From: a virus
Virus record (IMG/VR): IMGVR_UViG_3300025466_000015
Length of the DNA stretch: 64,000 nucleotides
Direction: 5' to 3' (one strand)
A model generated the notes under the pieces. The model saw only the letters and a program-made list of their open reading frames with translations. It searched no databases and was not told where the DNA came from. The position numbers and the translations under genes are program-made. Positions 12,655 through 56,709 of the stretch are shown here, piece by piece. Position 1 is the first letter of the stretch, and every line of letters begins with the position of its first letter.

Positions 12655-12679
12655 AAACAACTTGTGGTGATTATCCTAA

Positions 12680-12706
12680 GGGGCCTCTTGACAGGCCCCT
12701 TTTTTT
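12680..12706 (+). terminator. Rho-independent terminator overlapping a promoter
   Basis: GGGGCCT-cttgac-AGGCCCC followed by T7. Confidence 0.85.
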
Positions 12707-12716
12707 GTCTTATAAT
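12688..12716 (+). promoter_or_regulatory. Consensus sigma70 promoter TTGACA-17-TATAAT
   Basis: -35 lies in the terminator loop and -10 just after the T run. Confidence 0.82.
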
Positions 12717-12949: not shown

Positions 12950-13386
12950 TGAAACCCAAGTTTATTCGTTATTACATGGACATTGCCAAGCGTACAGCTG
13001 AATTAAGTTCAGCTAAACGCCTACAGGTTGGTGCTATCATTGTTAAGAATGACCGTATTGTGTCGATTGGATACAATGGTACTCCATCCGGTTGGACCAA
13101 TGTTTGTGAAGATGAAAACTATAAAACCAAAATTGAAGTTATTCACGCTGAGGCCAATGCAATTGCTAAGTTGGCAAGGTCTACGGAGTCTGGAGAAGGC
13201 GCTGTCATGTTTTTGACACACGCACCTTGTATGGATTGTGCTAAGCAGATATACACAGCTGGCATCCGTAAAGTGTTTTTTGACAGTCATTATCGTTCTA
13301 CGGATGGAGTTGTGTTTCTCAACAACTGCAACCTGGAGGTAGAACAAGTAAATGAAACATTGGAAACAAATAGTCACTTACAGTAA
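12949..13386 (+). CDS. cd: dCMP deaminase
   Basis: VGAIIV, GYNG, HAEANAI, PCMDC. Confidence 0.93.
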   Translation: MKPKFIRYYMDIAKRTAELSSAKRLQVGAIIVKNDRIVSIGYNGTPSGWTNVCEDENYKTKIEVIHAEANAIAKLARSTESGEGAVMFLTHAPCMDCAKQIYTAGIRKVFFDSHYRSTDGVVFLNNCNLEVEQVNETLETNSHLQ

Positions 13387-13490
13387 GTATATGATTTGTC
13401 TAGTGATTTTTGTATGGAAGATGTGGAAAGAATACTTAAACAATAAATAGCAAGGAGTCATCATCGGGTCAACTAATTAAAGGAGATTAA

Positions 13491-14003
13491 ATGAGATTAA
13501 AAGTAGTTAATTGTCCCGATAAAGATTTCAAACCTATTGTAGAAAGAGCAGCTTCTTTCTTTGCCAAAGAATTAATACCCAATACTAGAGTCCGTAACCA
13601 TTGTTTTACCAAGATTAGATTCAATGCTAAGATTTTGGAATATGGTTATGCTAGTGTGGAAGACTATAACACAAGAAATCAACCAAGAGAATTTCTAATA
13701 GAGATTCATCCAGGTATTGGTGCCAGAGATATATTGTCAACCATAGCACATGAGATGGTTCACATTAAACAATATATTGATGGTGAGTTAAATGAAGAAA
13801 TGTCTTACTGGAAAGGTAAGAGAGTAGATTCGGATAAAATGGAATATTGGTATTCACCATGGGAAGTAGACGCCAATGGATATGAAGTTGGTTTGATAAC
13901 CAAGTTTGCCGTTGCTGAATGTCTTTGGGAAGTCTTAGATGGATTTAAAAATCCAGCAACTCCTATAGTTTCTATACCAATAAAATGGAAAAAGAGAAAA
14001 TAA
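13491..14003 (+). CDS. HExxH zinc metallopeptidase-like protein
   Basis: TIAHEMVHIKQY and PWEVDA; SD AAGGAG. Confidence 0.7.
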   Translation: MRLKVVNCPDKDFKPIVERAASFFAKELIPNTRVRNHCFTKIRFNAKILEYGYASVEDYNTRNQPREFLIEIHPGIGARDILSTIAHEMVHIKQYIDGELNEEMSYWKGKRVDSDKMEYWYSPWEVDANGYEVGLITKFAVAECLWEVLDGFKNPATPIVSIPIKWKKRK

Positions 14004-14019
14004 ACGCCTATATACTAAC

Positions 14020-14118
14020 ATGAATAACATAAAACACTCCTTTAATCAGCCGATGTATCACACAGAGTCAATTTGTGCCGATACGCTGTGGCTCGTCAAA
14101 GGGGTTTGTACCTGTTAG
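14020..14118 (+). CDS. Putative attenuator leader peptide, 32 aa (MNNIKHSFNQPMYHTESICADTLWLVKGVCTC)
   Basis: Uses 19 of 20 amino acids and 26 distinct codons; last codons contain anti-terminator strand GGGGTTTGTA. Confidence 0.65.
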   Translation: MNNIKHSFNQPMYHTESICADTLWLVKGVCTC

Positions 14119-14146
14119 AATATAAAAGTTAAAACAAAAGTACTAC

Positions 14147-14178
14147 AAACCCCAGACCTAAAAGCTCTGGGGTTTTTT
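14147..14178 (+). terminator. Rho-independent terminator with alternative anti-terminator pairing
   Basis: AAACCCCAGA-cctaaaagc-TCTGGGGTTT+TTT; TACAAACCCC (14144-14153) also pairs perfectly with GGGGTTTGTA (14101-14110). Confidence 0.85.
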
Positions 14179-14230
14179 GTTGTCCGAATACAACACCAGT
14201 ATTGACAAAGGTCATCGAACCATATACAAT
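14178..14230 (+). promoter_or_regulatory. Palindromic box TGTTGT-N6-ACAACA plus sigma70 promoter TTGACA-17-TACAAT
   Basis: Box 14178-14195, 6-bp gap, -35 at 14202, -10 at 14225. Confidence 0.8.
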
Positions 14231-14237
14231 ACACACT

Positions 14238-14249
14238 TGTTCTTTAAAA
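14238..14249 (+). promoter_or_regulatory. boxA-like Nus antitermination element
   Basis: TGTTCTTTAAAA versus rrn boxA TGCTCTTTAACA, at the start of the tRNA array. Confidence 0.65.
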
Positions 14250-14265
14250 AATTAGATTGTATTTT

Positions 14266-14341
14266 ACCCTCTTAGCCAAGCTGGTAAGGCATCGGATTTT
14301 GATTCCGACATGCGGTGGTTCGAGTCCATCAGGGGGTGCCA
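14266..14341 (+). tRNA. tRNA-Gln(TTG)
   Basis: Cloverleaf; TCGGA-tt TTG at-TCCGA; GGTTCGAGTCC; encoded CCA. Confidence 0.92.
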
Positions 14342-14403
14342 TATAAAAACACATTTGCAACCACATGGGAGTGAGATATCCAAGGGGAGTGTGTTTCTAT
14401 ATG
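14340..14403 (+). ncRNA. Small stem-closed RNA of unknown function
   Basis: 17-bp closing helix CATATAAAAACACATTT/GAGTGTGTTTCTATATG with one A.C mismatch. Confidence 0.5.
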
Positions 14404-14408
14404 ACAAT

Positions 14409-14499
14409 GGAAGATAATGCAGCTGGGTAGGCCGGCGACCAGCCTTGAAAACTGGGTTCTGAGAAATCGGATGGGGTTCGACTCCTCTGTCTTCCGCCA
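14409..14499 (+). tRNA. tRNA-Ser(TGA)
   Basis: ct TGA aa loop, long variable arm, G73-CCA. Confidence 0.9.
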
Positions 14500-14516
14500 A
14501 TTAAAAGGAGTTTATT

Positions 14517-15080
14517 ATGCCTAGTGTATTTCTTGTAAGTGACACACATTTTGGTCATCATGGAGTGTGTCGTTTCACTGGTAAAGATGGTGTTACAAAG
14601 CTTAGGCCATGGGACAATCCAGATGAGATGGATGAAGAAATGGTCAAGCGTTGGAACGAAAGAGTAAAGCCAACTGATAAAGTTTATCATCTTGGTGATG
14701 TGGTGATTAATCGTAAATCTCTTAATATTATGCGTAGGCTTAACGGAGACAAAGTTCTTATTAGAGGTAACCATGATATCTTTAGAGATAAAGAATACTA
14801 TGAACACTTCAGAGAGCTCCGTGCTTATCATGTTATGAGAGGTATGATTCTTTCACACATTCCACTTCATACCGATAGTATTCAAAGATTTGGTACCAAT
14901 ATTCACGGTCATACCCATGATAGGCGTGTAATGATTGGTAATGAAATTGATATCAGATACCATTGTGTATGTGTGGAACAAACAGACTACACTCCTATTC
15001 TTTTTGAAGATGTTGTGAAACGTATTCAAGCAGAAGGTGGTGAAGTTGATTTCAGACAGCATGGAAATAGAGCCATGTAG
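14517..15080 (+). CDS. Calcineurin-like metallophosphoesterase
   Basis: SDTHFGH, HLGD, RGNHD, SHIP, IHGHTH. Confidence 0.9.
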   Translation: MPSVFLVSDTHFGHHGVCRFTGKDGVTKLRPWDNPDEMDEEMVKRWNERVKPTDKVYHLGDVVINRKSLNIMRRLNGDKVLIRGNHDIFRDKEYYEHFRELRAYHVMRGMILSHIPLHTDSIQRFGTNIHGHTHDRRVMIGNEIDIRYHCVCVEQTDYTPILFEDVVKRIQAEGGEVDFRQHGNRAM

Positions 15081-15171
15081 GAGATTTGGCCGAGAGGTCT
15101 AAGGCAGCAGGTTGCTAACCTGTCGTATTGAGTAATCAGTACCGTGGGTTCGATTCCCACAGTCTCCGCCA
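15080..15171 (+). tRNA. tRNA-Ser(GCT)
   Basis: tt GCT aa loop, long variable arm, CCA. Confidence 0.92.
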
Positions 15172-15176
15172 GTTAA

Positions 15177-15254
15177 GGTTAGGTGCCAGAGAGGTCCAAT
15201 GGAACAGTCTGCAAAACTGTAAAACCGTGGGTTCAAATCCCACCCTAACCTCCA
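15177..15254 (+). tRNA. tRNA-Cys(GCA)
   Basis: ACAGT-ct GCA aa-ACTGT; U73-CCA. Confidence 0.92.
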
Positions 15255-15276
15255 TTAATAGTTGACCGGAATAAAG

Positions 15277-15322
15277 TAATACTAAAGTATTAGGTTGCCA
15301 TTTCAACCAGTTCTGTTACAAT
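15277..15322 (+). promoter_or_regulatory. Palindrome TAATACT-AA-AGTATTA plus promoter TTGCCA-16-TACAAT
   Basis: Palindrome 15277-15292; -35 at 15295; TGn extended -10 at 15317. Confidence 0.6.
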
Positions 15323-15361
15323 ACATTTATCGGTTGAGAAATCAATTGATAAAAAAAGTGA

Positions 15362-15413
15362 AGTTGTAGAAATACAACAGGATGGTTGACAAATTATCCC
15401 AATCTGGTATAAT
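15362..15413 (+). promoter_or_regulatory. Palindromic box plus sigma70 promoter TTGACA-16-TATAAT
   Basis: AGTTGT-agaaat-ACAACA 15362-15379, 6-bp gap, -35 at 15386. Confidence 0.8.
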
Positions 15414-15446
15414 AGAGTCTTGTTCAGTTAATTAAGGAGAAAAATT

Positions 15447-15548
15447 TTGGAATGTTTAAAATGTAGATTTTGGCACTGGCCAACAAATTACACAAAAGGT
15501 GCTCCATGTGATCCTAAATTCATTCCAGTTCCCGTAAAAACGGAATAG
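15447..15548 (+). CDS. Putative 33-aa Cys/His peptide (MECLKCRFWHWPTNYTKGAPCDPKFIPVPVKTE)
   Basis: SD AAGGAG, TTG start, own promoter; CxxC-H-C pattern. Confidence 0.5.
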   Translation: MECLKCRFWHWPTNYTKGAPCDPKFIPVPVKTE

Positions 15549-15563
15549 AAAACAAAAAAAGAG

Positions 15564-15627
15564 TGTTGTCATCGTACAACACTCTGGTTGACAAAGGTAA
15601 TTACCTATGTTATAATTGTTCTTTAAA
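15564..15627 (+). promoter_or_regulatory. Palindromic box, promoter TTGACA-17-TATAAT and boxA-like TGTTCTTTAAA
   Basis: TGTTGT-catcgt-ACAACA 15564-15581; -35 at 15588; -10 at 15611; boxA-like 15617-15627. Confidence 0.8.
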
Positions 15628-15636
15628 TTGTAAGTT

Positions 15637-15711
15637 GCTCGGTTCGTCTATCGGTTAGGACACCGCCCTTTCACGGCAGTAAGACCAGTTCGATTCTGGT
15701 ACCGAGTACCA
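15637..15711 (+). tRNA. tRNA-Glu(TTC)
   Basis: ct TTC ac loop; GTTCGATTC; CCA. Confidence 0.9.
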
Positions 15712-15921
15712 TACTAAAATACATTAGGTTACCAACTCTAGTAGGTGACTTTTTAGGTTGAAATGCGGGCCGCTGCATACCTTTAAAGTTACATGAAGCC
15801 TTCCGATGGCGCTAGAATCAGTTGAAGTGTAATGTGGAGATTGTCTTATCGGCAGACGAAGCCGTGAGAAGCTGGATGAAGTTCCAGAACGACAATCACA
15901 TCCTAATGTATTTCAGTATGG
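15709..15921 (+). ncRNA. ~210-nt multibranched structured RNA of unknown family
   Basis: 20-bp closing helix with one A.C mismatch and at least 7 nested internal helices. Confidence 0.65.
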
Positions 15922-15924
15922 TGT

Positions 15925-16047
15925 CATTTGTTTTGCTGACGTAAGCCATGGGGGAAACGTCAACCCTGAGTAACTGCGTATATAAACGGTACGTCTAGCT
16001 AGCAATTCCGTTGAGCGTCAGCAAATAGTGCGTCAGCAAAACAAATG
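15925..16047 (+). ncRNA. ~120-nt stem-closed RNA of unknown family
   Basis: Perfect 17-bp helix CATTTGTTTTGCTGACG/CGTCAGCAAAACAAATG; internal duplicate GCGTCAGCAAA. Confidence 0.55.
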
Positions 16048-16121
16048 GTCTCATAGTATAATGGTTAGTACGGTGGCTTGTCACGCCACTAATAGGAGTT
16101 CGATTCTCCTTGGGACCGCCA
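16047..16121 (+). tRNA. tRNA-Asp(GTC)
   Basis: GTGGC-tt GTC ac-GCCAC; G73-CCA. Confidence 0.92.
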
Positions 16122-16125
16122 ATTT

Positions 16126-16225
16126 TTAAAATGTGTGTAGCAGTTGAGTCTGCCATAAAACACGGTTCGCCTGTAGCACGGTACTCAGCCCGACATAAAG
16201 AACAGTTACTGACCACACATTTTAA
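16126..16225 (+). ncRNA. ~100-nt stem-closed RNA of unknown family
   Basis: 12-bp helix TTAAAATGTGTG/CACACATTTTAA; internal TGAGT/ACTCA and GG-TTCG-CC hairpin. Confidence 0.5.
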
Positions 16226-16235
16226 TTTGTTTTAT

Positions 16236-16370
16236 GCTCAGAAACATCCACGCTACGGTTCGCAACCGTGGGTCCACGGTGAGTTCGCTACTCATGGCAG
16301 TTGGAGAGGTAAACACCCCCGCCACAGGGGGTCTCCGGTGAAAGAAGGTGGGATTCCTTCGTGAGCGCCA
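16236..16370 (+). ncRNA. 135-nt tRNA-like RNA ending in CCA
   Basis: GCTCA/TGAGC-G-CCA acceptor-like end, T-arm GAAGG-tgggatt-CCTTC, two internal TTCGC hairpins, no anticodon arm. Confidence 0.65.
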
Positions 16371-16374
16371 ATTT

Positions 16375-16450
16375 GGAATCGTAGCTCAGTTGGCAGAGCA
16401 GCGGACTTTTAATCCGTAGGTCAGGAGTTCAAATCTCCTCGGTTCCACCA
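16375..16450 (+). tRNA. tRNA-Lys(TTT)
   Basis: GCGGA-ct TTT aa-TCCGT; CCA. Confidence 0.93.
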
Positions 16451-16457
16451 GCTTTAT

Positions 16458-16532
16458 GGAGAGATTAGTTTAGTGGTAAAACCACGGGTTGTGATTCCGT
16501 TATCACGGGTTCGATTCCCGTATTTCTCCCCA
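16458..16532 (+). tRNA. tRNA-His(GTG)
   Basis: tt GTG at loop; G-1 and C73. Confidence 0.92.
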
Positions 16533-16539
16533 AGATTAT

Positions 16540-16614
16540 TCCACAGTAGCACAGCGGTAGTGCAGTTGGCTGTTAACCAATTGGTCGTAGGTTCAATCCC
16601 TGCCTGTGGAGCCA
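16540..16614 (+). tRNA. tRNA-Asn(GTT)
   Basis: GTTGG-ct GTT aa-CCAAT; G73-CCA. Confidence 0.92.
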
Positions 16615-16621
16615 AGTAAAT

Positions 16622-16706
16622 GGATGTGCCGCCGTAATGGTATGGCAGGAGACTGTAAATCTTCCGGTTTACACCACAGTTGGTTCGATCCCAACCACAT
16701 CCACCA
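16622..16706 (+). tRNA. tRNA-Tyr(GTA)
   Basis: ct GTA aa loop; long variable arm; CCA. Confidence 0.9.
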
Positions 16707-16710
16707 TTTT

Positions 16711-16786
16711 GCCCCTATAGCTCATCTGGTAGAGCAACTGATTTGTAATCAGTAGGTGCCGTGTTCGAGTCATGGTGGGGGCACCA
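16711..16786 (+). tRNA. tRNA-Thr(TGT)
   Basis: ACTGA-tt TGT aa-TCAGT; CCA. Confidence 0.92.
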
Positions 16787-16792
16787 ATTTTT

Positions 16793-16869
16793 CGGAGTGT
16801 AGCACAGCCTGGTAGTGCGCTTGCTTTGGGAGCAAGAGGTCCAAGGTTCGAATCCTTGTACTCCGACCA
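16793..16869 (+). tRNA. tRNA-Pro(TGG)
   Basis: CTTGC-tt TGG ga-GCAAG; C1-G72; CCA. Confidence 0.93.
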
Positions 16870-16963
16870 TTTCATATGAAGGTGTAAATTCTCTACTTGT
16901 AGTCCAAAATTCTTTGGCCTTGTAGGGTTCTGTAAAAATGCCTTTATTCATTTCCGTATTTAT

Positions 16964-17037
16964 GGGGGATTAGTATAATGGGATTACGGCAGCTTTGCAA
17001 GTTGTTTATAGGAGTTCGATTCTCCTATCCTCCACCA
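16964..17037 (+). tRNA. tRNA-Ala(TGC)
   Basis: tt TGC aa loop; G3.U70; CCA. Confidence 0.9.
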
Positions 17038-17042
17038 TTCAT

Positions 17043-17117
17043 AGTGACGTAGCTTAACGGTAGAGCAAATCCTTCATACGGATTAGGTTGGGGGCTCGAA
17101 TCCCTCCGTCACTACCA
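17043..17117 (+). tRNA. tRNA-Met(CAT), probably elongator
   Basis: AATCC-tt CAT ac-GGATT; paired 1-72; CCA. Confidence 0.82.
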
Positions 17118-17119
17118 AT

Positions 17120-17194
17120 CGGTCCTTAGTAAAATGAATATTACACAGAGCTACGAACTCTGAAGTGGGAGTTTGATTCTCTCAGGACCGGCCA
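17120..17194 (+). tRNA. tRNA-Arg(ACG)
   Basis: CAGAG-ct ACG aa-CTCTG; variant T-loop TTTGATT; CCA. Confidence 0.85.
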
Positions 17195-17200
17195 ATATAT

Positions 17201-17274
17201 ACTCTCATAGTTAAATGGTATAACAGACGCTTGATAAGCGTCCATTACAAGTTCAATTCTTGTTGGGAGTACCA
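17201..17274 (+). tRNA. tRNA-Ile(GAT)
   Basis: GACGC-tt GAT aa-GCGTC; CCA. Confidence 0.9.
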
Positions 17275-17276
17275 AT

Positions 17277-17351
17277 ATCTCGTTAGTGTAACGGTAACAT
17301 GCTGGTCTCCAAAACCATGCGATTGCGGTTCGAATCCGTAGCGGGATACCA
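17277..17351 (+). tRNA. tRNA-Trp(CCA)
   Basis: ct CCA aa loop; GGTTCGAATCC; CCA. Confidence 0.87.
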
Positions 17352-17352
17352 A

Positions 17353-17967
17353 TTATTCTGAAACTGATTCAGCAGGATGCCATTCTGTTGGTGTCACACC
17401 TTCAAGCAAGGTGGATAAATCTAAACCATAATAATAGTCTTCTAATATTTCTTTCATATAATCAAGAACCTCTATTTTGTGTTTGAATTGTTTTAATTCA
17501 CCTTCACGGAATTTAATTTGATCCTGTATGATACTTTTAATGAAGTTTTCACCTTCTTTTTTACGGTTAACCTTATTTAAAATTTTATTGAGCTTGATTA
17601 TAAAACCATTACATGTTATAATGTTATCTTTAATTTGGCCAACGTTATCTTGCATTTCTCTTTTCATTACAAAGATTAAATCATCATGGTCTGGATTAAT
17701 TTTTGTAATGCAATGAGTTGTTAAACCTGCTAACTCTTGTAACGCTTCTGTTCTAATCGGAATATCTTCTTCTATTTTGCCTGTTGCATCATAGTCGGCT
17801 CTTCTGGATGGATCACTAAGTACTTCGTAAGCAAGTTTAATTTTTTTAAAAGTGGTCTCATCACCACCTTTATCAGGATGATGTTGTTGAGCCAAAGCTC
17901 TGTATCTTTGTTTGATTTCATCAAAGGTGCATCTTGGAGATAGTCCTAGTTCATCGTATAAGTTCAT
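17353..17967 (-). CDS. DnaJ (J-domain) protein
   Basis: NLYDELGL..EIKQRYRALAQQHHPDKGGD..AYEVLSDP; minus-strand TATAAATA at 17992-17999. Confidence 0.9.
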   Translation of the reverse strand: MNLYDELGLSPRCTFDEIKQRYRALAQQHHPDKGGDETTFKKIKLAYEVLSDPSRRADYDATGKIEEDIPIRTEALQELAGLTTHCITKINPDHDDLIFVMKREMQDNVGQIKDNIITCNGFIIKLNKILNKVNRKKEGENFIKSIIQDQIKFREGELKQFKHKIEVLDYMKEILEDYYYGLDLSTLLEGVTPTEWHPAESVSE

Positions 17968-18010
17968 TTTATTGATTTAAAAGTTGTAAGATATTTATAA
18001 AGGTGGTTAT

Positions 18011-18493
18011 ATGAGAAAATTTGATATAGAAGAAGTTAAATCATTTCTTGCTTCACAAGGACCAGATACTAAAGTTTATCTTGGTGCTGATTCTGAAAGA
18101 GTAAGAGTCAATGGTGTTTGGTATGCAGACTACGCTTTGGCCGTTGTTGTTCATATTGATGGCCGCCATGGTTGTAAAATTTTTGGTTATGTTGAACGAG
18201 AAATTGATTACGACCACAAGAAAAGTAAACCAGCAATGAGATTAATGACCGAAGTTTATAAAGTTTCGGATTTATTTCAATCACTTGCTGAAGTATTGGA
18301 AGACTTCCATGTTGAAGTGCATCTAGACCTGAACAAATCGGATCTATTTGGTTCATCATGTGTAGTACAACAAGCAATTGGTTATATCAAAGGTACATGT
18401 AATATGACACCAATGGTTAAACCAGATGCACCTGCGGCTTCTTTTTGTGCTGATAGATTAAAAAGAATTCTAACAGAACAAGAAGCAGTTTAA
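18011..18493 (+). CDS. RNase H-like YkuK (DUF458) family protein
   Basis: VYLGADS, RLMTEV, EVHLDLN, KPDAPAASFCADR. Confidence 0.8.
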   Translation: MRKFDIEEVKSFLASQGPDTKVYLGADSERVRVNGVWYADYALAVVVHIDGRHGCKIFGYVEREIDYDHKKSKPAMRLMTEVYKVSDLFQSLAEVLEDFHVEVHLDLNKSDLFGSSCVVQQAIGYIKGTCNMTPMVKPDAPAASFCADRLKRILTEQEAV

Positions 18494-18512
18494 TTTTTTT
18501 ATAAGGATTTTT

Positions 18513-18770
18513 ATGAGTTATATTCCATTGAATGGTAAAATTATTGTTGAACGTATTGAAGCATCAAAAGAAACAGCTTCAGGTATTATTTTAAAATCTT
18601 CTGGTGAACCAGATAGAGCAAAAGTAATTACTGTTGCTGATAATTTGGATGAAGTTTCAATTAATGATGAGTTGCTTGTTAATTGGAATGGAGCCGTAAA
18701 ATTAGAAAACGATATTTACAGTATTGACATTGAACATGTTGTTGCTGTATACGATGCCTCGTTAGTTTAA
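18513..18770 (+). CDS. groES: Co-chaperonin GroES-like
   Basis: IPLNGKIIVERIE..TASGIIL..AKVITV..IEHVVAV. Confidence 0.85.
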   Translation: MSYIPLNGKIIVERIEASKETASGIILKSSGEPDRAKVITVADNLDEVSINDELLVNWNGAVKLENDIYSIDIEHVVAVYDASLV

Positions 18771-18829
18771 TGGTAGAACACCGCCCTTACAAGACGGTTA
18801 CGGCAGTTCGATTCTGTCACGAGGTACCA
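18756..18829 (+). tRNA. tRNA-Val(TAC)
   Basis: ct TAC aa loop; CCA; 5' end overlaps groES stop. Confidence 0.88.
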
Positions 18830-18830
18830 T

Positions 18831-18906
18831 GCAACCTTAGCTGATGTGGTCATAGCGGCGGTTTGAAGAGCCGTGGAAGTTGGTTCGATTCCAACAGGTT
18901 GCACCA
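18831..18906 (+). tRNA. tRNA-Phe(GAA)
   Basis: GCGGT-tt GAA ga-GCCGT; CCA. Confidence 0.88.
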
Positions 18907-18964
18907 AATAATGTAATACTTGTTTTATATAAATATATCATGTATACCATTTTTAAGGATAGAA

Positions 18965-19426
18965 ATGAGACAAGATATAATAGATAGAAAACAAGATATA
19001 CTCATTTGGATTAACGAAAATCAATCTAAATCTTTTATTTGCAAACAACTTGGATGTAAACCAGAAACACTTGAAAGTTATCTAAAAAAGTTTGGTGTTG
19101 TTTATAAAGGCAACATGGGACTAAAGGGTAAAAAAACAGACAGTAAATATGTTCCAGCTTTGGATTATATCAAAGGTTCTTTTGTTTCCGCACACAAACT
19201 AAAATTAAAATTAATCCGTGATGGTATAAAAGAGCATAGATGTGAATTGTGTAGCACAATTGAATGGATGTCTCAAAAAGTTCCTTTAGAGCTTGACCAC
19301 ATAGACGGAAATCATTATAATAATGAATTGTCTAACCTGAGAATTATTTGTCCAAATTGTCATGCACAACAGGATACTAATTCAGGTAAGAATGTAAAAC
19401 ATCGTAAAAAAATATTGCCCCTTTGA
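18965..19426 (+). CDS. HNH homing endonuclease within the tRNA array
   Basis: CELC..LELDHIDGNHYNNELSNLRIICPNCH; late promoter TATAAATA at 18928-18935. Confidence 0.9.
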   Translation: MRQDIIDRKQDILIWINENQSKSFICKQLGCKPETLESYLKKFGVVYKGNMGLKGKKTDSKYVPALDYIKGSFVSAHKLKLKLIRDGIKEHRCELCSTIEWMSQKVPLELDHIDGNHYNNELSNLRIICPNCHAQQDTNSGKNVKHRKKILPL

Positions 19427-19501
19427 TGTAACTGGTAGCCATGCGGTCCTTAGAAGTCCGTGCCGAAAGGTGTGAGGGTTCGAATCCCTTGGGGGGCACC
19501 A
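19417..19501 (+). tRNA. tRNA-Leu(TAG)
   Basis: ct TAG aa loop; variable arm GCC-GAAA-GGT; CCA. Confidence 0.87.
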
Positions 19502-19505
19502 ATAT

Positions 19506-19582
19506 GTGGTTGTGATGGAATTGGTATACATATCAGACTTAAAATCTGAGTTTTGTGGGTTCGAGTCCCACCTTCCACACCA
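19506..19582 (+). tRNA. tRNA-Leu(TAA), short variable region
   Basis: TCAGA-ct TAA aa-TCTGA; 5-nt variable loop; two U.U pairs in acceptor stem. Confidence 0.8.
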
Positions 19583-19586
19583 TGAG

Positions 19587-19664
19587 GCCCCTGTGGACAA
19601 ATTGGCAAAGTCGTTTCTCTCAAAAGGAAAAATTCTCTCGGTTCGACTCCGAGCGGGGGTACCA
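19587..19664 (+). tRNA. tRNA-Leu(CAA), short variable region
   Basis: TTTCT-ct CAA aa-GGAAA; CCA. Confidence 0.82.
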
Positions 19665-19736
19665 GTAATAATGTAATAAAAGTAATAAGAGTAATATCCT
19701 GTGTAGGATGTTAAGTGCTGATGTATAATAACATCT

Positions 19737-20018
19737 ATGAAAAACACTATATTACTCCTATCATTTTTAGCAACTGCCTGTGGCGGAGGTGAACCAAATA
19801 CTTCCGTAACCAAACCATGTGTCAGTAACATTGTAGCAACTATGTCTGAGATGACCTCGCCATTTTTTGAAGGTATGGGTACGCCTGATAGCATTACCAC
19901 ATTTCCTATAATAAATGGTCAACATAGTATTGAATATGATTTTAAATCACTACATAAGAGACTAACATTTATTTGGACAGACCAAGGTGTTTGCCAAGAA
20001 ATAGAAACAACAATTTGA
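19737..20018 (+). CDS. Small lipoprotein
   Basis: MKNTILLLSFLATA-C lipobox. Confidence 0.65.
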   Translation: MKNTILLLSFLATACGGGEPNTSVTKPCVSNIVATMSEMTSPFFEGMGTPDSITTFPIINGQHSIEYDFKSLHKRLTFIWTDQGVCQEIETTI

Positions 20019-20093
20019 CTGCCGTTAGTATAATGGATAATACAGCTGCCTTCTAAGCAGTCAATAGAGGTTCGATTCCTCTACGGCGGACCA
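20019..20093 (+). tRNA. tRNA-Arg(TCT)
   Basis: ct TCT aa loop; GGTTCGATTCC; CCA. Confidence 0.9.
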
Positions 20094-20121
20094 ATAAATA
20101 GTAATAGTTAAGGAGAAACTA

Positions 20122-20454
20122 ATGTCATATATTATTCAACTCGTAAAAAATAAACCGGAAGACAAACAATTTTTTAGATATGGTTATAAAGATTCCGATG
20201 CGAATACTATTGTGAAAAATATTAATAGTTGGATCAATAGTCAACCTGGTCTTATTAGTCGTAACACGCCGCCTCCTGCAGATTTTGATATTGCAAATTC
20301 TAATATAATAATTGAAAGTTTTGAATTTAAATCAAATGTTTTTGCTGAAATATTTCAAGCACAAACCGCTTCAAATCCGGATTGGCAATTACGATTAAGT
20401 TACGAAGCAAACAATTCAATTACATCAACTTGGCAAGTGGTTGAAAATACATAA
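20122..20454 (+). CDS. Hypothetical protein
   Basis: SD AAGGAG; ATAAATA late-like element upstream. Confidence 0.6.
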   Translation: MSYIIQLVKNKPEDKQFFRYGYKDSDANTIVKNINSWINSQPGLISRNTPPPADFDIANSNIIIESFEFKSNVFAEIFQAQTASNPDWQLRLSYEANNSITSTWQVVENT

Positions 20455-20456
20455 TT

Positions 20457-20531
20457 GCTCCGATAGCTTAATGGTAAAGCAACCGACTCATAATCGGTTG
20501 AGTCTGTGTTCAATTCACAGTCGGAGCACCA
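20457..20531 (+). tRNA. tRNA with CAT anticodon, probably Ile2 (lysidine type)
   Basis: ACCGA-ct CAT aa-TCGGT resembles the bacterial ileX arm; CCA. Confidence 0.75.
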
Positions 20532-20549
20532 AGTTTACCACAAGGACGC

Positions 20550-20578
20550 TTGACAAGAGCGCCTATATAAGATACAAT
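20550..20578 (+). promoter_or_regulatory. sigma70 promoter TTGACA-17-TACAAT
   Basis: Directly upstream of the Gly tRNA group. Confidence 0.75.
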
Positions 20579-20590
20579 CTAATTTTAGTT

Positions 20591-20665
20591 GCGGGTATGG
20601 TGCTAGTGGTAACACAAGACCTTGCCAAGGTTTAGTTGAGAGTTCGATTCTCTCTACCCGCTCCA
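20591..20665 (+). tRNA. tRNA-Gly(GCC)
   Basis: tt GCC aa loop; GCG start; U73-CCA. Confidence 0.9.
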
Positions 20666-20672
20666 GTTTATT

Positions 20673-20746
20673 GCGGATTTAGTTTAATGGTAGAACGGGA
20701 GATTTCCAATCTTTCGGCAACAGTTCGATTCTGTTAATCCGCTCCA
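20673..20746 (+). tRNA. tRNA-Gly(TCC)
   Basis: tt TCC aa loop; U73-CCA. Confidence 0.9.
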
Positions 20747-20751
20747 GTTAT

Positions 20752-20816
20752 GCGGGGGTTTCAAACAACATTGGGGTCCACCTGATGTCCTAGTGAGAAT
20801 CTAGGCACCCGCTCCA
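20752..20816 (+). ncRNA. 65-nt D-armless Gly-type mini-tRNA / tRNA mimic
   Basis: GCGGG/CCCGC-U-CCA acceptor; 8-bp arm with GTCCA loop; T-arm CCTAG-tgagaat-CTAGG; no D arm. Confidence 0.65.
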
Positions 20817-20835
20817 ATTTATTATGGAGTTCATA

Positions 20836-21027
20836 ATGTCTGATGGTGGCAAAGGAAGTAATCCAAGACCTTTTAGTGTAGACCAAGACACTTATGGTAA
20901 AAACTTTGACGCCATCTTCCGTAAACCTACACCAAAAGAATTAGATGATGAGGCAGCTGAAAAAGAAGCTTTTGATAAATTATCGCAGGGTGGTGAAACA
21001 GTATCACGAAGGACTCATAATCCTTAG
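20836..21027 (+). CDS. Small hypothetical protein (GGKGSxPRP motif)
   Basis: SD GGAG; MSDGGKGSNPRPFSV..NFDAIFRK; 3' end runs into tRNA-fMet. Confidence 0.6.
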   Translation: MSDGGKGSNPRPFSVDQDTYGKNFDAIFRKPTPKELDDEAAEKEAFDKLSQGGETVSRRTHNP

Positions 21028-21057
21028 TTCTTGGTGCGACTCCAGGCTCTGCAACCA
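20984..21057 (+). tRNA. Initiator tRNA-fMet(CAT)
   Basis: C1.A72 mismatch; ct CAT aa loop; CCA; lacks the full three G-C anticodon-stem pairs. Confidence 0.8.
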
Positions 21058-21100
21058 GTTCATATAAATATCCAGTTATCGTTTAACTTGGATATAGAAA

Positions 21101-22537
21101 ATGCCTGTAAAAAGTTTTGTAGAATTTGAAAAAGAAAAATACCAAAAGCACATTGACTTTTATGGTAAAATTCTAATTATCGGTTATGGCTCTGTTGGAC
21201 AAGCCATTTTACCAGTTATTTTAAGACACATTGCTGTTGATCCAAAAAACATCACGGTACTAGAACGTGATAATCATAGACACATTTTTATTCACCGCCA
21301 CGGTGGTTCTGGCTGTCACTATGTCAGAAAAGAGATTCTTCCAAGTAATTACAAAAAAGTATTATCAACCTATGTTGGTGAAGGTGATTTAATTATCAAT
21401 TGCTCACTTAATATTGATGCACAAGCATTACTAGAGTGGTGTATGGAAAATGATGTGATGGAAATTGATACATCATTAGAAAGATGGGAACATCATCCAG
21501 ACGAAACAATTCCAAAGTTGTCTGAACGAACATTGTACCATACACATAAAGTTGTTCGTGAAGCTATGATGCAACATGTTGATGGTCCTACATGCTGTGT
21601 GACTCATGGTGCAAATCCAGGTTATGTTACTCATTTGACCAAAAGAGCACTTCTTAATCTAGCCAAGAAACGTGGCAAAAAAGTTGAGATGCCAACAGAC
21701 CGTGAAGAATGGGCTCAGTTGATGAAATCACTAGATGTTAAAGTGATTCATATTGCTGAAAGAGACCAACAAGTTATTAATCAACCAAAAACAAAAGGTG
21801 AATTTACCAACACATGGTCTTGCGAAGGTTTTTGGGCTGAAGGTAGAGCGCCTGCCGAGATGGGCTGGGGCACACATGAAGACAGACATCCAGAAGGCGG
21901 TAAGTCACAAGGTAATGCAGCTTTCTTAATGCAACCTGGCGCTTCTGTATTGATGAAGTCTTGGGTACCAGATGGTGGACAATACAATGGTTACTGTATT
22001 CAACATTCAGAGTCAGTAACAATATCAGAATACTTCACAACAAAACGTGGTGACTTTAGACCATCCGTTTATTACGTTTATCAACCATGTGATTCGGCTA
22101 TTGCTTCGCTACATGAGATGCGTGGTAACGAATTAGATATTCAAAAAGAACAACGTATTCTCAAAGATGAAATCGTTGACGGCATGGATGAATTGGGTGT
22201 ATTATTGATTGGTGACGGCTTCTGCTTCTGGCACGGTTCACAATTAGATATTCACGGGGCTAGAGAATTAGTGGAAGGTGAAAATGCAACATCAATGCAA
22301 GTTGCAGGTTCTATGTTGGGTGCCATCGTTTGGATGATTAAAAATCCGAGAAATGGTTACACAGAACCAGAAGAATTGCCGTTTGAAGAAATCTTGGCCA
22401 TCGGTGACCAATATTGGGAACCATTGGTATCTGTAATGTCTAACTGGACACCAAGCAAGGACACTAACAGTCTATTCTATAAAGAATTTGATGAAAGTAA
22501 TCCTTGTAAATACGAAAACTTTAGAGTCTGGACTTAA
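21101..22537 (+). CDS. hss: Homospermidine synthase
   Basis: IIGYGSVG, HGANPG, IHIAERD, FTNTWSCEGF, EMGWGTHE, GMDELGVL, NATSMQV; late promoter TATAAATA at 21063. Confidence 0.93.
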   Translation: MPVKSFVEFEKEKYQKHIDFYGKILIIGYGSVGQAILPVILRHIAVDPKNITVLERDNHRHIFIHRHGGSGCHYVRKEILPSNYKKVLSTYVGEGDLIINCSLNIDAQALLEWCMENDVMEIDTSLERWEHHPDETIPKLSERTLYHTHKVVREAMMQHVDGPTCCVTHGANPGYVTHLTKRALLNLAKKRGKKVEMPTDREEWAQLMKSLDVKVIHIAERDQQVINQPKTKGEFTNTWSCEGFWAEGRAPAEMGWGTHEDRHPEGGKSQGNAAFLMQPGASVLMKSWVPDGGQYNGYCIQHSESVTISEYFTTKRGDFRPSVYYVYQPCDSAIASLHEMRGNELDIQKEQRILKDEIVDGMDELGVLLIGDGFCFWHGSQLDIHGARELVEGENATSMQVAGSMLGAIVWMIKNPRNGYTEPEELPFEEILAIGDQYWEPLVSVMSNWTPSKDTNSLFYKEFDESNPCKYENFRVWT

Positions 22538-56484: not shown

Positions 56485-56664
56485 GTGTCGAAGTTTGTAG
56501 CTAAGTTCCGTAAGAATGACTATAATGATGATTATAGTTTTGGAACAAAAAAGAAACGCAGTAAATCAAATAAAGTGGTTAGAAAATCCAATACTCAATA
56601 TGAGGATTATTCGGATTTTTACAATATGGGACAAGGTAAACGCAAAGAAAAAAGAATGTCGTAA
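56485..56664 (+). CDS. Small basic hypothetical protein (59 aa)
   Basis: SD AAGGAG + GTG; MSKFVAKFRKNDYNDDY. Confidence 0.55.
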   Translation: MSKFVAKFRKNDYNDDYSFGTKKKRSKSNKVVRKSNTQYEDYSDFYNMGQGKRKEKRMS

Positions 56665-56709
56665 AAAAACAACATTCTGTTTGACAATCCTCAATCGGTA
56701 GTATATAAT
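56657..56709 (+). promoter_or_regulatory. Palindromic box plus promoter TTGACA-17-TATAAT
   Basis: TGTCGT-aaaaaa-ACAACA 56657-56674, 6-bp gap, -35 at 56681. Confidence 0.8.

Follow-up and report, generated by a model that had tools for sequence, protein, structure and literature searches.

A putative ribosome-mediated attenuator with a nearly complete set of amino acids at the head of a phage tRNA array

Why some phages carry full sets of tRNA genes is debated, the reasons considered being codon compensation, decay of host tRNA and escape from anticodon nucleases. To our knowledge, there is no account of how such arrays are regulated. The question is raised anew by a 64,000-nucleotide stretch of viral DNA (IMG/VR record IMGVR_UViG_3300025466_000015; "the window" below is this whole stretch, as analysed), in which a short open reading frame (ORF) and an intrinsic terminator stand ahead of a tRNA array. 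An earlier note on this DNA had proposed that the ORF and terminator form an attenuator through which a ribosome senses loss of tRNA, and had named as checks in related phages an ORF that stays open, an antiterminator pairing that is conserved and an amino-acid diversity that is kept while the peptide diverges. The neighbours of the ORF include, by the gene calls of the window, RegA, the clamp loader small subunit and dCMP deaminase, and the window is therefore that of a T4-like phage; its source is an uncultured freshwater member of that group. The features to which the argument refers are as follows.

14007-14016, plus strand: vestigial -10 region of promoter P1, CCTATATACT, assigned by homology to relatives; the -35 box is absent here
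14020-14118, plus strand: leader ORF, 32 codons and TAG (ATG at 14020, stop at 14116-14118), read from the sequence; the open frame is conserved in relatives
14036-14043, plus strand: region 1, ACTCCTTT, codons 6-8, with predicted pairing to 14098-14105 in the full-length fold
14048-14093, plus strand: central hairpin inside the ORF, predicted in each lineage
14101-14110, plus strand: region 2, putative antiterminator 5' strand, within codons 28-31
14144-14153, plus strand: region 3, putative antiterminator 3' strand, overlapping the 5' arm of the terminator
14147-14178, plus strand: intrinsic terminator, stem 14147-14156 / 14166-14175, T-run to 14178
14178-14230, plus strand: palindrome TGTTGT-N6-ACAACA, 6 bp before the -35, and promoter P2 (TTGACA-17-TACAAT)
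14266-14341, plus strand: tRNA-Gln(UUG), first gene of an array of 26-27 tRNAs (26 by ARAGORN)

The leader ORF is as the earlier note had described it. Its 32-residue peptide contains 19 different amino acids, with Arg absent, and is written in 26 different codons, many of them rare. Measured against the phage's own long genes, 19 different residues occur in 0.25% of 32-residue windows, and 26 different codons lie at the 2.5th percentile. Codon rarity places the ORF at the 0.6th percentile (mean ln RSCU of -0.21 against 0.18±0.13 in gene windows), and its GC3 is 53%, compared with 29% in the long genes. Neither Pfam nor PHROGs has a family that matches the 32-residue product; when 1.8 billion proteins were searched with a profile, 14 related peptide clusters came up, all of the same kind, besides two chance hits to repeat proteins. 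No Rfam leader family (Trp_leader, His_leader, Thr_leader and others) was matched when positions 13000-22000 were scanned with cmscan (E<=1), the sole result being a chance-level sRNA match over 14091-14178 that scored 19 bits against a cut-off of 175 bits.

Relatives of the locus were collected as 160 IMG/VR loci, obtained in scans with two flanking proteins, and as the DNA available for 8 of the 14 peptide clusters, which together yielded 48 distinct leaders, all belonging to uncultured T4-like phages of freshwater. They have a common layout, consisting of P1, an ORF of 31-44 codons, a spacer of 27-36 nt, the terminator, the palindrome with P2, and tRNA-Gln, which is the first tRNA past the module in nearly all of them. 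In five long contigs, of which three are genomes 93-100% complete, the main tRNA array comes right behind the module and holds 26-32 tRNAs for 19-20 amino acids. Among 50,697 phage records there was neither a close cultured relative of the window phage nor, by megablast, blastn and tblastn, a copy of the module in a cultured phage. Stenotrophomonas phage DLP_6 has 37 tRNAs, with a 56-aa ORF without a terminator at the head of the array, and a scan of DLP_6 for an ORF, terminator and tRNA with pairing between regions 2 and 3 (2:3 pairing) found none. As a separate observation, an unannotated tmRNA-like stretch lies upstream of the 37-tRNA array of DLP_6 (L173 540-760, equal to DLP_6 102839-103059); its 3' end resembles that of a tRNA and carries CCA, and its frame ends in ...ANDDSFAPMAIAA followed by a stop.

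Translation of the leader is suggested by comparison. The reading frame of the ORF is open in all 48 diverged leaders, as the earlier note had required of a genuine leader, whereas frame +1 is open in 3 of 48 and frame +2 in none, these other two frames having on average 1.8 and 3.7 stop codons. Start signals are found as well. In the relatives P1 is a sigma70-type promoter, TTGCCA-17-TATAAT, and many lineages have their ATG at exactly 6 nt past TATAAT, so that the mRNA of those lineages would be leaderless; in other lineages a leader of 21-35 nt places GGAG or AAGGA ahead of the start codon, which is GTG, TTG or ATG. From the open frame and these start signals we infer that the leader ORF is translated.

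The window itself departs from this arrangement at P1. No Shine-Dalgarno sequence precedes its ATG, as had been noted. The element CCTATATA, which the earlier note took for a late promoter, is homologous to the -10 region of the relatives' P1; the late-promoter reading was rejected on account of this homology, and CCTATATA is regarded instead as a vestigial sigma70 -10. Because P1 in the window's clade has lost its -35 box, and the spacing from -10 to ATG is 3 nt shorter, the leader of the window is probably the last cistron of an operon starting at a promoter at 12688. Near the start of that operon, at 12678-12716, a terminator hairpin carries in its loop the -35 hexamer of a promoter with 12/12 matches, whereby stop and restart signals are fused.

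The pairing and the terminator that had been claimed for the window are both present, region 2 (GGGGTTTGTA) being the exact complement of region 3 (TACAAACCCC), and the terminator stem folds as proposed. The 2:3 duplex of the window is calculated at -17.1 kcal/mol, which was reached by 2 of 300 shuffles, and the equivalent duplexes at two other terminators in the window at -7.9 and -5.8. Among the relatives a terminator stem and T-run are found in all lineages, 27-36 nt past the stop codon, and the 2:3 hairpin folds in most of 22 lineages when the transcript ends before the 3' arm of the terminator. Cognate 2:3 duplexes have a mean of -18.3 kcal/mol, compared with -13.5±0.6 when region 3 is swapped among the 24 types, and none of 20000 permutations reached the cognate mean. 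In a sequence-only MAFFT alignment 91.5% of cells are paired against 82.0±1.3 in shuffles (0/500); compensatory changes on both sides occur in 6 of 11 pairs, and slid controls pair at no more than 57%, the 2:3 alignment being mildly biased, since the predicted duplex was used to place the left boundary of every aligned piece. The variants include GGGG/CCCC, GGG/CCC, GTGT/ACAC, GTAT/ATAC, GGTGA/TCACC, TTTTTGA/TCAAAAA and AGAGGTTA/TAACCTCT. By the duplex permutations and by the alignment, the putative antiterminator covaries with each phage's own terminator, which is the conservation of pairing that the earlier note had asked for. Furthermore, region 2 is retained in a different reading frame in three loci (L078, L076 and L123), and the constraint thus acts on the RNA.

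The geometry of these elements suggests how a ribosome could decide between them. The 2:3 helix and the 5' arm of the terminator have 4-7 nt in common, and the mean predicted stability of the antiterminator hairpin is -19.6 kcal/mol compared with -14.8 for the terminator, so that a free region 2 would win. Region 2 lies within or just before the last codons, and the position of the stop codon ranges between 2 nt short of the region 2 3' end and 21 nt beyond it; on completing the ORF, a ribosome would therefore cover region 2 or sit between regions 2 and 3.

Two further helices were considered. Region 1 would be an anti-antiterminator if the predicted 1:2 pairing forms, and 18 of 22 lineages have a 1:2 helix when the full-length leader is folded; it had no cognate advantage (-11.7 vs -11.6) and no RNAalifold consensus. 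For the 1:2 helix and the central hairpin taken together, permutation, shuffle, RNAalifold and pair-count tests gave no support. Both were dropped as supported elements after these comparative tests and are treated as single-sequence predictions. An untranslated leader would terminate if the 1:2 helix is real, and would read through if it is not.

What distinguishes the ORF is its amino-acid content. There are 44 distinct peptides, of 31-44 residues, among which all 20 amino acids are present in 27 and 19 in another 14, a count that includes the initiator Met, many leaders having no internal Met codon; at most 0.1% of gene windows of 32-39 residues contain all 20. Fifteen representatives with less than 65% identity have a mean of 19.6 different amino acids, compared with 17.85±0.26 in column-shuffled chimeras (0/5000), and the same shuffle test applied to 23 windows of the neighbouring protein gave differences of at most 0.5 residues (maximum z 2.9). 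The rare residues His, Ala and Val stand at different positions in different lineages. Judged by these comparisons, amino-acid completeness is under selection while the peptide diverges, and the diversity that the earlier note had expected to be kept is indeed retained.

The claim that the leader samples nearly every tRNA needs to be narrowed. Completeness speaks for it, but only the codons ahead of region 2 can signal. This sensed part comprises about 25-28 codons for 17-18 different amino acids, each present once or twice, and across the family 18.2 different residues are found in the 28.5 codons ahead of region 2, compared with 13.9±1.6 in gene windows. In the window, Gly is confined to the start of region 2, and Val to region 2 itself or the codon next ahead, where a stalled ribosome would overlie part of the strand already. 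Some residues (Val, Gly) are found nowhere but in region 2 or past it, and stalling there cannot lead to read-through.

How far the tRNA genes depend on read-through is bound up with P2. As the earlier note had stated, a separate sigma70 promoter begins at 14202; P2 (14202-14230) is near-consensus, with 11/12 matches, and lies 23-41 nt past the terminator in almost every lineage, with further promoters inside the array. Any read-through would therefore be no more than a supplement to constitutive transcription of the tRNAs, except if P2 itself is under the control of a factor bound at the palindrome. The situation is different in one locus, L161, where the module stands inside the array after tRNA-Met and is without P2. 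There a tRNA-Ser-like gene starts 5 nt past the T-run, tRNA-Ser and tRNA-Cys come next, and only beyond these is there another promoter. With no promoter between the terminator and these three genes, they would have to be reached by read-through.

Several other observations concern the array and its promoters. The palindrome TGTTGT-N6-ACAACA ends 6 bp before a TTGACA -35 at 14178-14207, 15362-15391, 15564-15593 and 56657-56686; four such promoters in the window compare with 0.15 expected by chance, and P1 of the relatives is without the palindrome. A dimeric regulator probably binds at this palindrome and thereby marks out a class of promoters. The first 30 or so transcribed bases past P2-type promoters are conserved (TGTTCTTTAAAAA...), as seen at 14231-14262 in the window and, for example, in the loci L022 and L148. 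The TGTTCTTTAAAAA... stretch recurs at other array promoters and may be a shared 5' leader or a signal for processing of tRNA precursors. Inside the array, between two promoters of the palindrome class, lies an ORF at 15447-15548 with 33 codons, a TTG start, a strong Shine-Dalgarno sequence (AAGGAG), three Cys and 18 different residues; it was considered as a second copy of the device and rejected, a terminator being absent after it. At 14409-14495 the window has a tRNA-like gene with a CCA end, an anticodon loop CTTGAAA (UGA, Ser-like) and a long extra arm, which was missed by ARAGORN and scores 32 bits against Rfam tRNA-Sec, below the cut-off of 47 bits; its homologue in L161 is the gene that starts 5 nt after the attenuator T-run. 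RNA runs were 23 in number (3-4 sampled words each), and the four examined cover only tRNA-Gln and the tRNA-like stretch at 14406-14500.

Taken together, the module has the short ORF, the terminator and the maskable antiterminator of an attenuator, and a run of codons for one amino acid is absent. With somewhat better than even confidence, it is read here as a ribosome-mediated transcription attenuator that heads the phage tRNA array and measures the overall speed of decoding, an attenuator that senses tRNA depletion having already been proposed in the earlier note, whose interpretation is now supported by the three comparative tests of the ORF, the pairing and the amino-acid diversity. The case is stronger across the relatives than in the window taken by itself. 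In this scheme transcripts would enter the ORF from P1 in the relatives and, in the window, more likely from the upstream operon. Where region 2 pairs with region 3, the terminator would be blocked and RNA polymerase would go on to transcribe the tRNA genes. If a ribosome completes the ORF soon enough, it would cover region 2, or sit between regions 2 and 3, whereupon the terminator would form and transcription would stop. A shortage of almost any charged tRNA would delay the ribosome, and because the codons ahead of region 2 are varied and in many cases rare, almost any such shortage would raise read-through. The device would then gauge overall decoding capacity rather than the supply of one amino acid. 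The phages would probably make more tRNA when ribosomes decode slowly, with read-through that would respond to decoding speed and may add usefully to transcription from P2.

A stronger version of the same proposal would make the module a pan-tRNA sensor, in which one leader reads nearly all charged tRNA pools and a fall in any of them opens upstream transcription into a complete replacement set. Host tRNA decay, anticodon nucleases or starvation could be the trigger for such a fall. This version is put forward tentatively, its chances being judged a little short of even.

The competing explanations differ in how much of the module they account for. One would keep the attenuator and take its signal to be translation in general, the amino-acid diversity of the peptide not being the sensed feature; loss of ribosome activity or of coupling, through host shut-off, a ribosome-targeting defence, antibiotics or cold, would free region 2. 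Generic attenuators in which an upstream ORF (uORF) senses stalling are known in bacteria, the RNA switch and the conservation of the ORF would be the same, and some amino acids stand beyond the stretch in which stalling could be sensed, which favours such a signal. It leaves unexplained why 19-20 amino acids are kept in 31-44 codons despite divergence of the peptide, and why the module is tied to arrays covering all 20 amino acids, and is considered unlikely. Alternatively, the terminated leader might be a trans-acting small RNA, the ORF being secondary. The attenuator-derived rnTrpL is a precedent for a terminated leader acting in trans, and termination here would yield a structured RNA some 160 nt long, with a fold z-score of -4.1. 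The open frame, the start signals and the amino-acid completeness would all go unexplained, which makes a small RNA very improbable as the main function.

The remaining explanations turn on the peptide. Its conserved motif is roughly KPF..QPEYRT..C.D.SW..GFC, and its pN/pS, 0.44 when close pairs are compared, is about 0.7 in distant ones. A motif and a ratio below 1 are what might be seen in an ordinary early gene for a micro-protein, with its own promoter and terminator, in which the 2:3 pairing would be a structure of the mRNA 3' end or incidental to the A-tract and U-tract flanks of the terminator; the promoter, ORF and terminator do form a self-contained unit, and P2 drives the tRNAs. The leader's pN/pS is, however, several times that of a neighbouring 170-aa gene measured in the same way (0.05-0.29), both the length and the C-terminus of the peptide vary freely, and neither Pfam nor PHROGs has a family for it. 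The peptide sequence is, on this measure, weakly constrained, and low constraint together with the lack of a protein family make a pattern to be expected if the product is a leader peptide rather than a functional protein. Nor would a micro-protein gene account for a region 2 that is kept in another frame, for a 2:3 pairing that covaries with the terminator and is more stable than it, or for the tRNA genes of L161 that follow directly on the terminator without a promoter of their own; such a gene is thought improbable here. The near-invariant Trp, with the conserved Asp and Tyr-Arg/His-Thr, could instead point to a sensor of the TnaC or SpeFL type, in which residues of the nascent peptide arrest the ribosome on a small molecule and so set termination. 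Against such an arrest, the distance from Trp to the stop codon ranges from 7 to 25 residues, the C-termini are unrelated and pN/pS is high, so that this explanation is given very little weight.

If the attenuator reading is true, these phages monitor decoding capacity and respond to it, which favours the view of tRNA arrays as a replacement for a failing host tRNA pool. Leader-peptide attenuation would be extended from one amino acid to all, and the module would be a compact natural part, about 160 nt long, that reports global translation capacity. The pan-tRNA sensor, if it is one, would be of a kind not described for tRNA genes or phages, with closed-loop control over the supply for translation.

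The closest known systems are the attenuators of amino-acid operons (trpL, hisL, leuL, pheL and the multivalent thrL and ilvL). Like these, the module has a short, probably translated ORF and an intrinsic terminator, the 5' strand of the antiterminator would lie under the footprint of the finishing ribosome, and slow decoding would lead to read-through. Unlike them, it has nearly every amino acid once or twice instead of a run of codons for a single one; the genes downstream are tRNAs rather than biosynthetic enzymes, and the element belongs to a phage. In addition, the ORF extends across region 2, the terminator has a promoter behind it in most cases, and the 1:2 helix is only predicted. Leaders of the erm and cat type, the "ribo-regulators" found by Term-seq and the mycobacterial whiB7 uORF also combine a uORF with a terminator to report impaired translation. 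These respond to drugs (whiB7 to alanine shortage) and control genes for resistance or stress, and we know of no stalling-sensing uORF attenuator reported with a complete set of amino acids or in control of tRNA genes; a literature search found no published attenuator of this kind for tRNA genes. T-box riboswitches resemble the module in coupling the charging of tRNA to read-through of a terminator by way of an antiterminator, but they bind one specific uncharged tRNA directly, without ribosome or ORF, and control synthetase and amino-acid genes. Mechanistically the module would thus be a leader-peptide attenuator, and what sets it apart is the complete codon sampler in place of a codon run, the tRNA genes as target and the phage setting.
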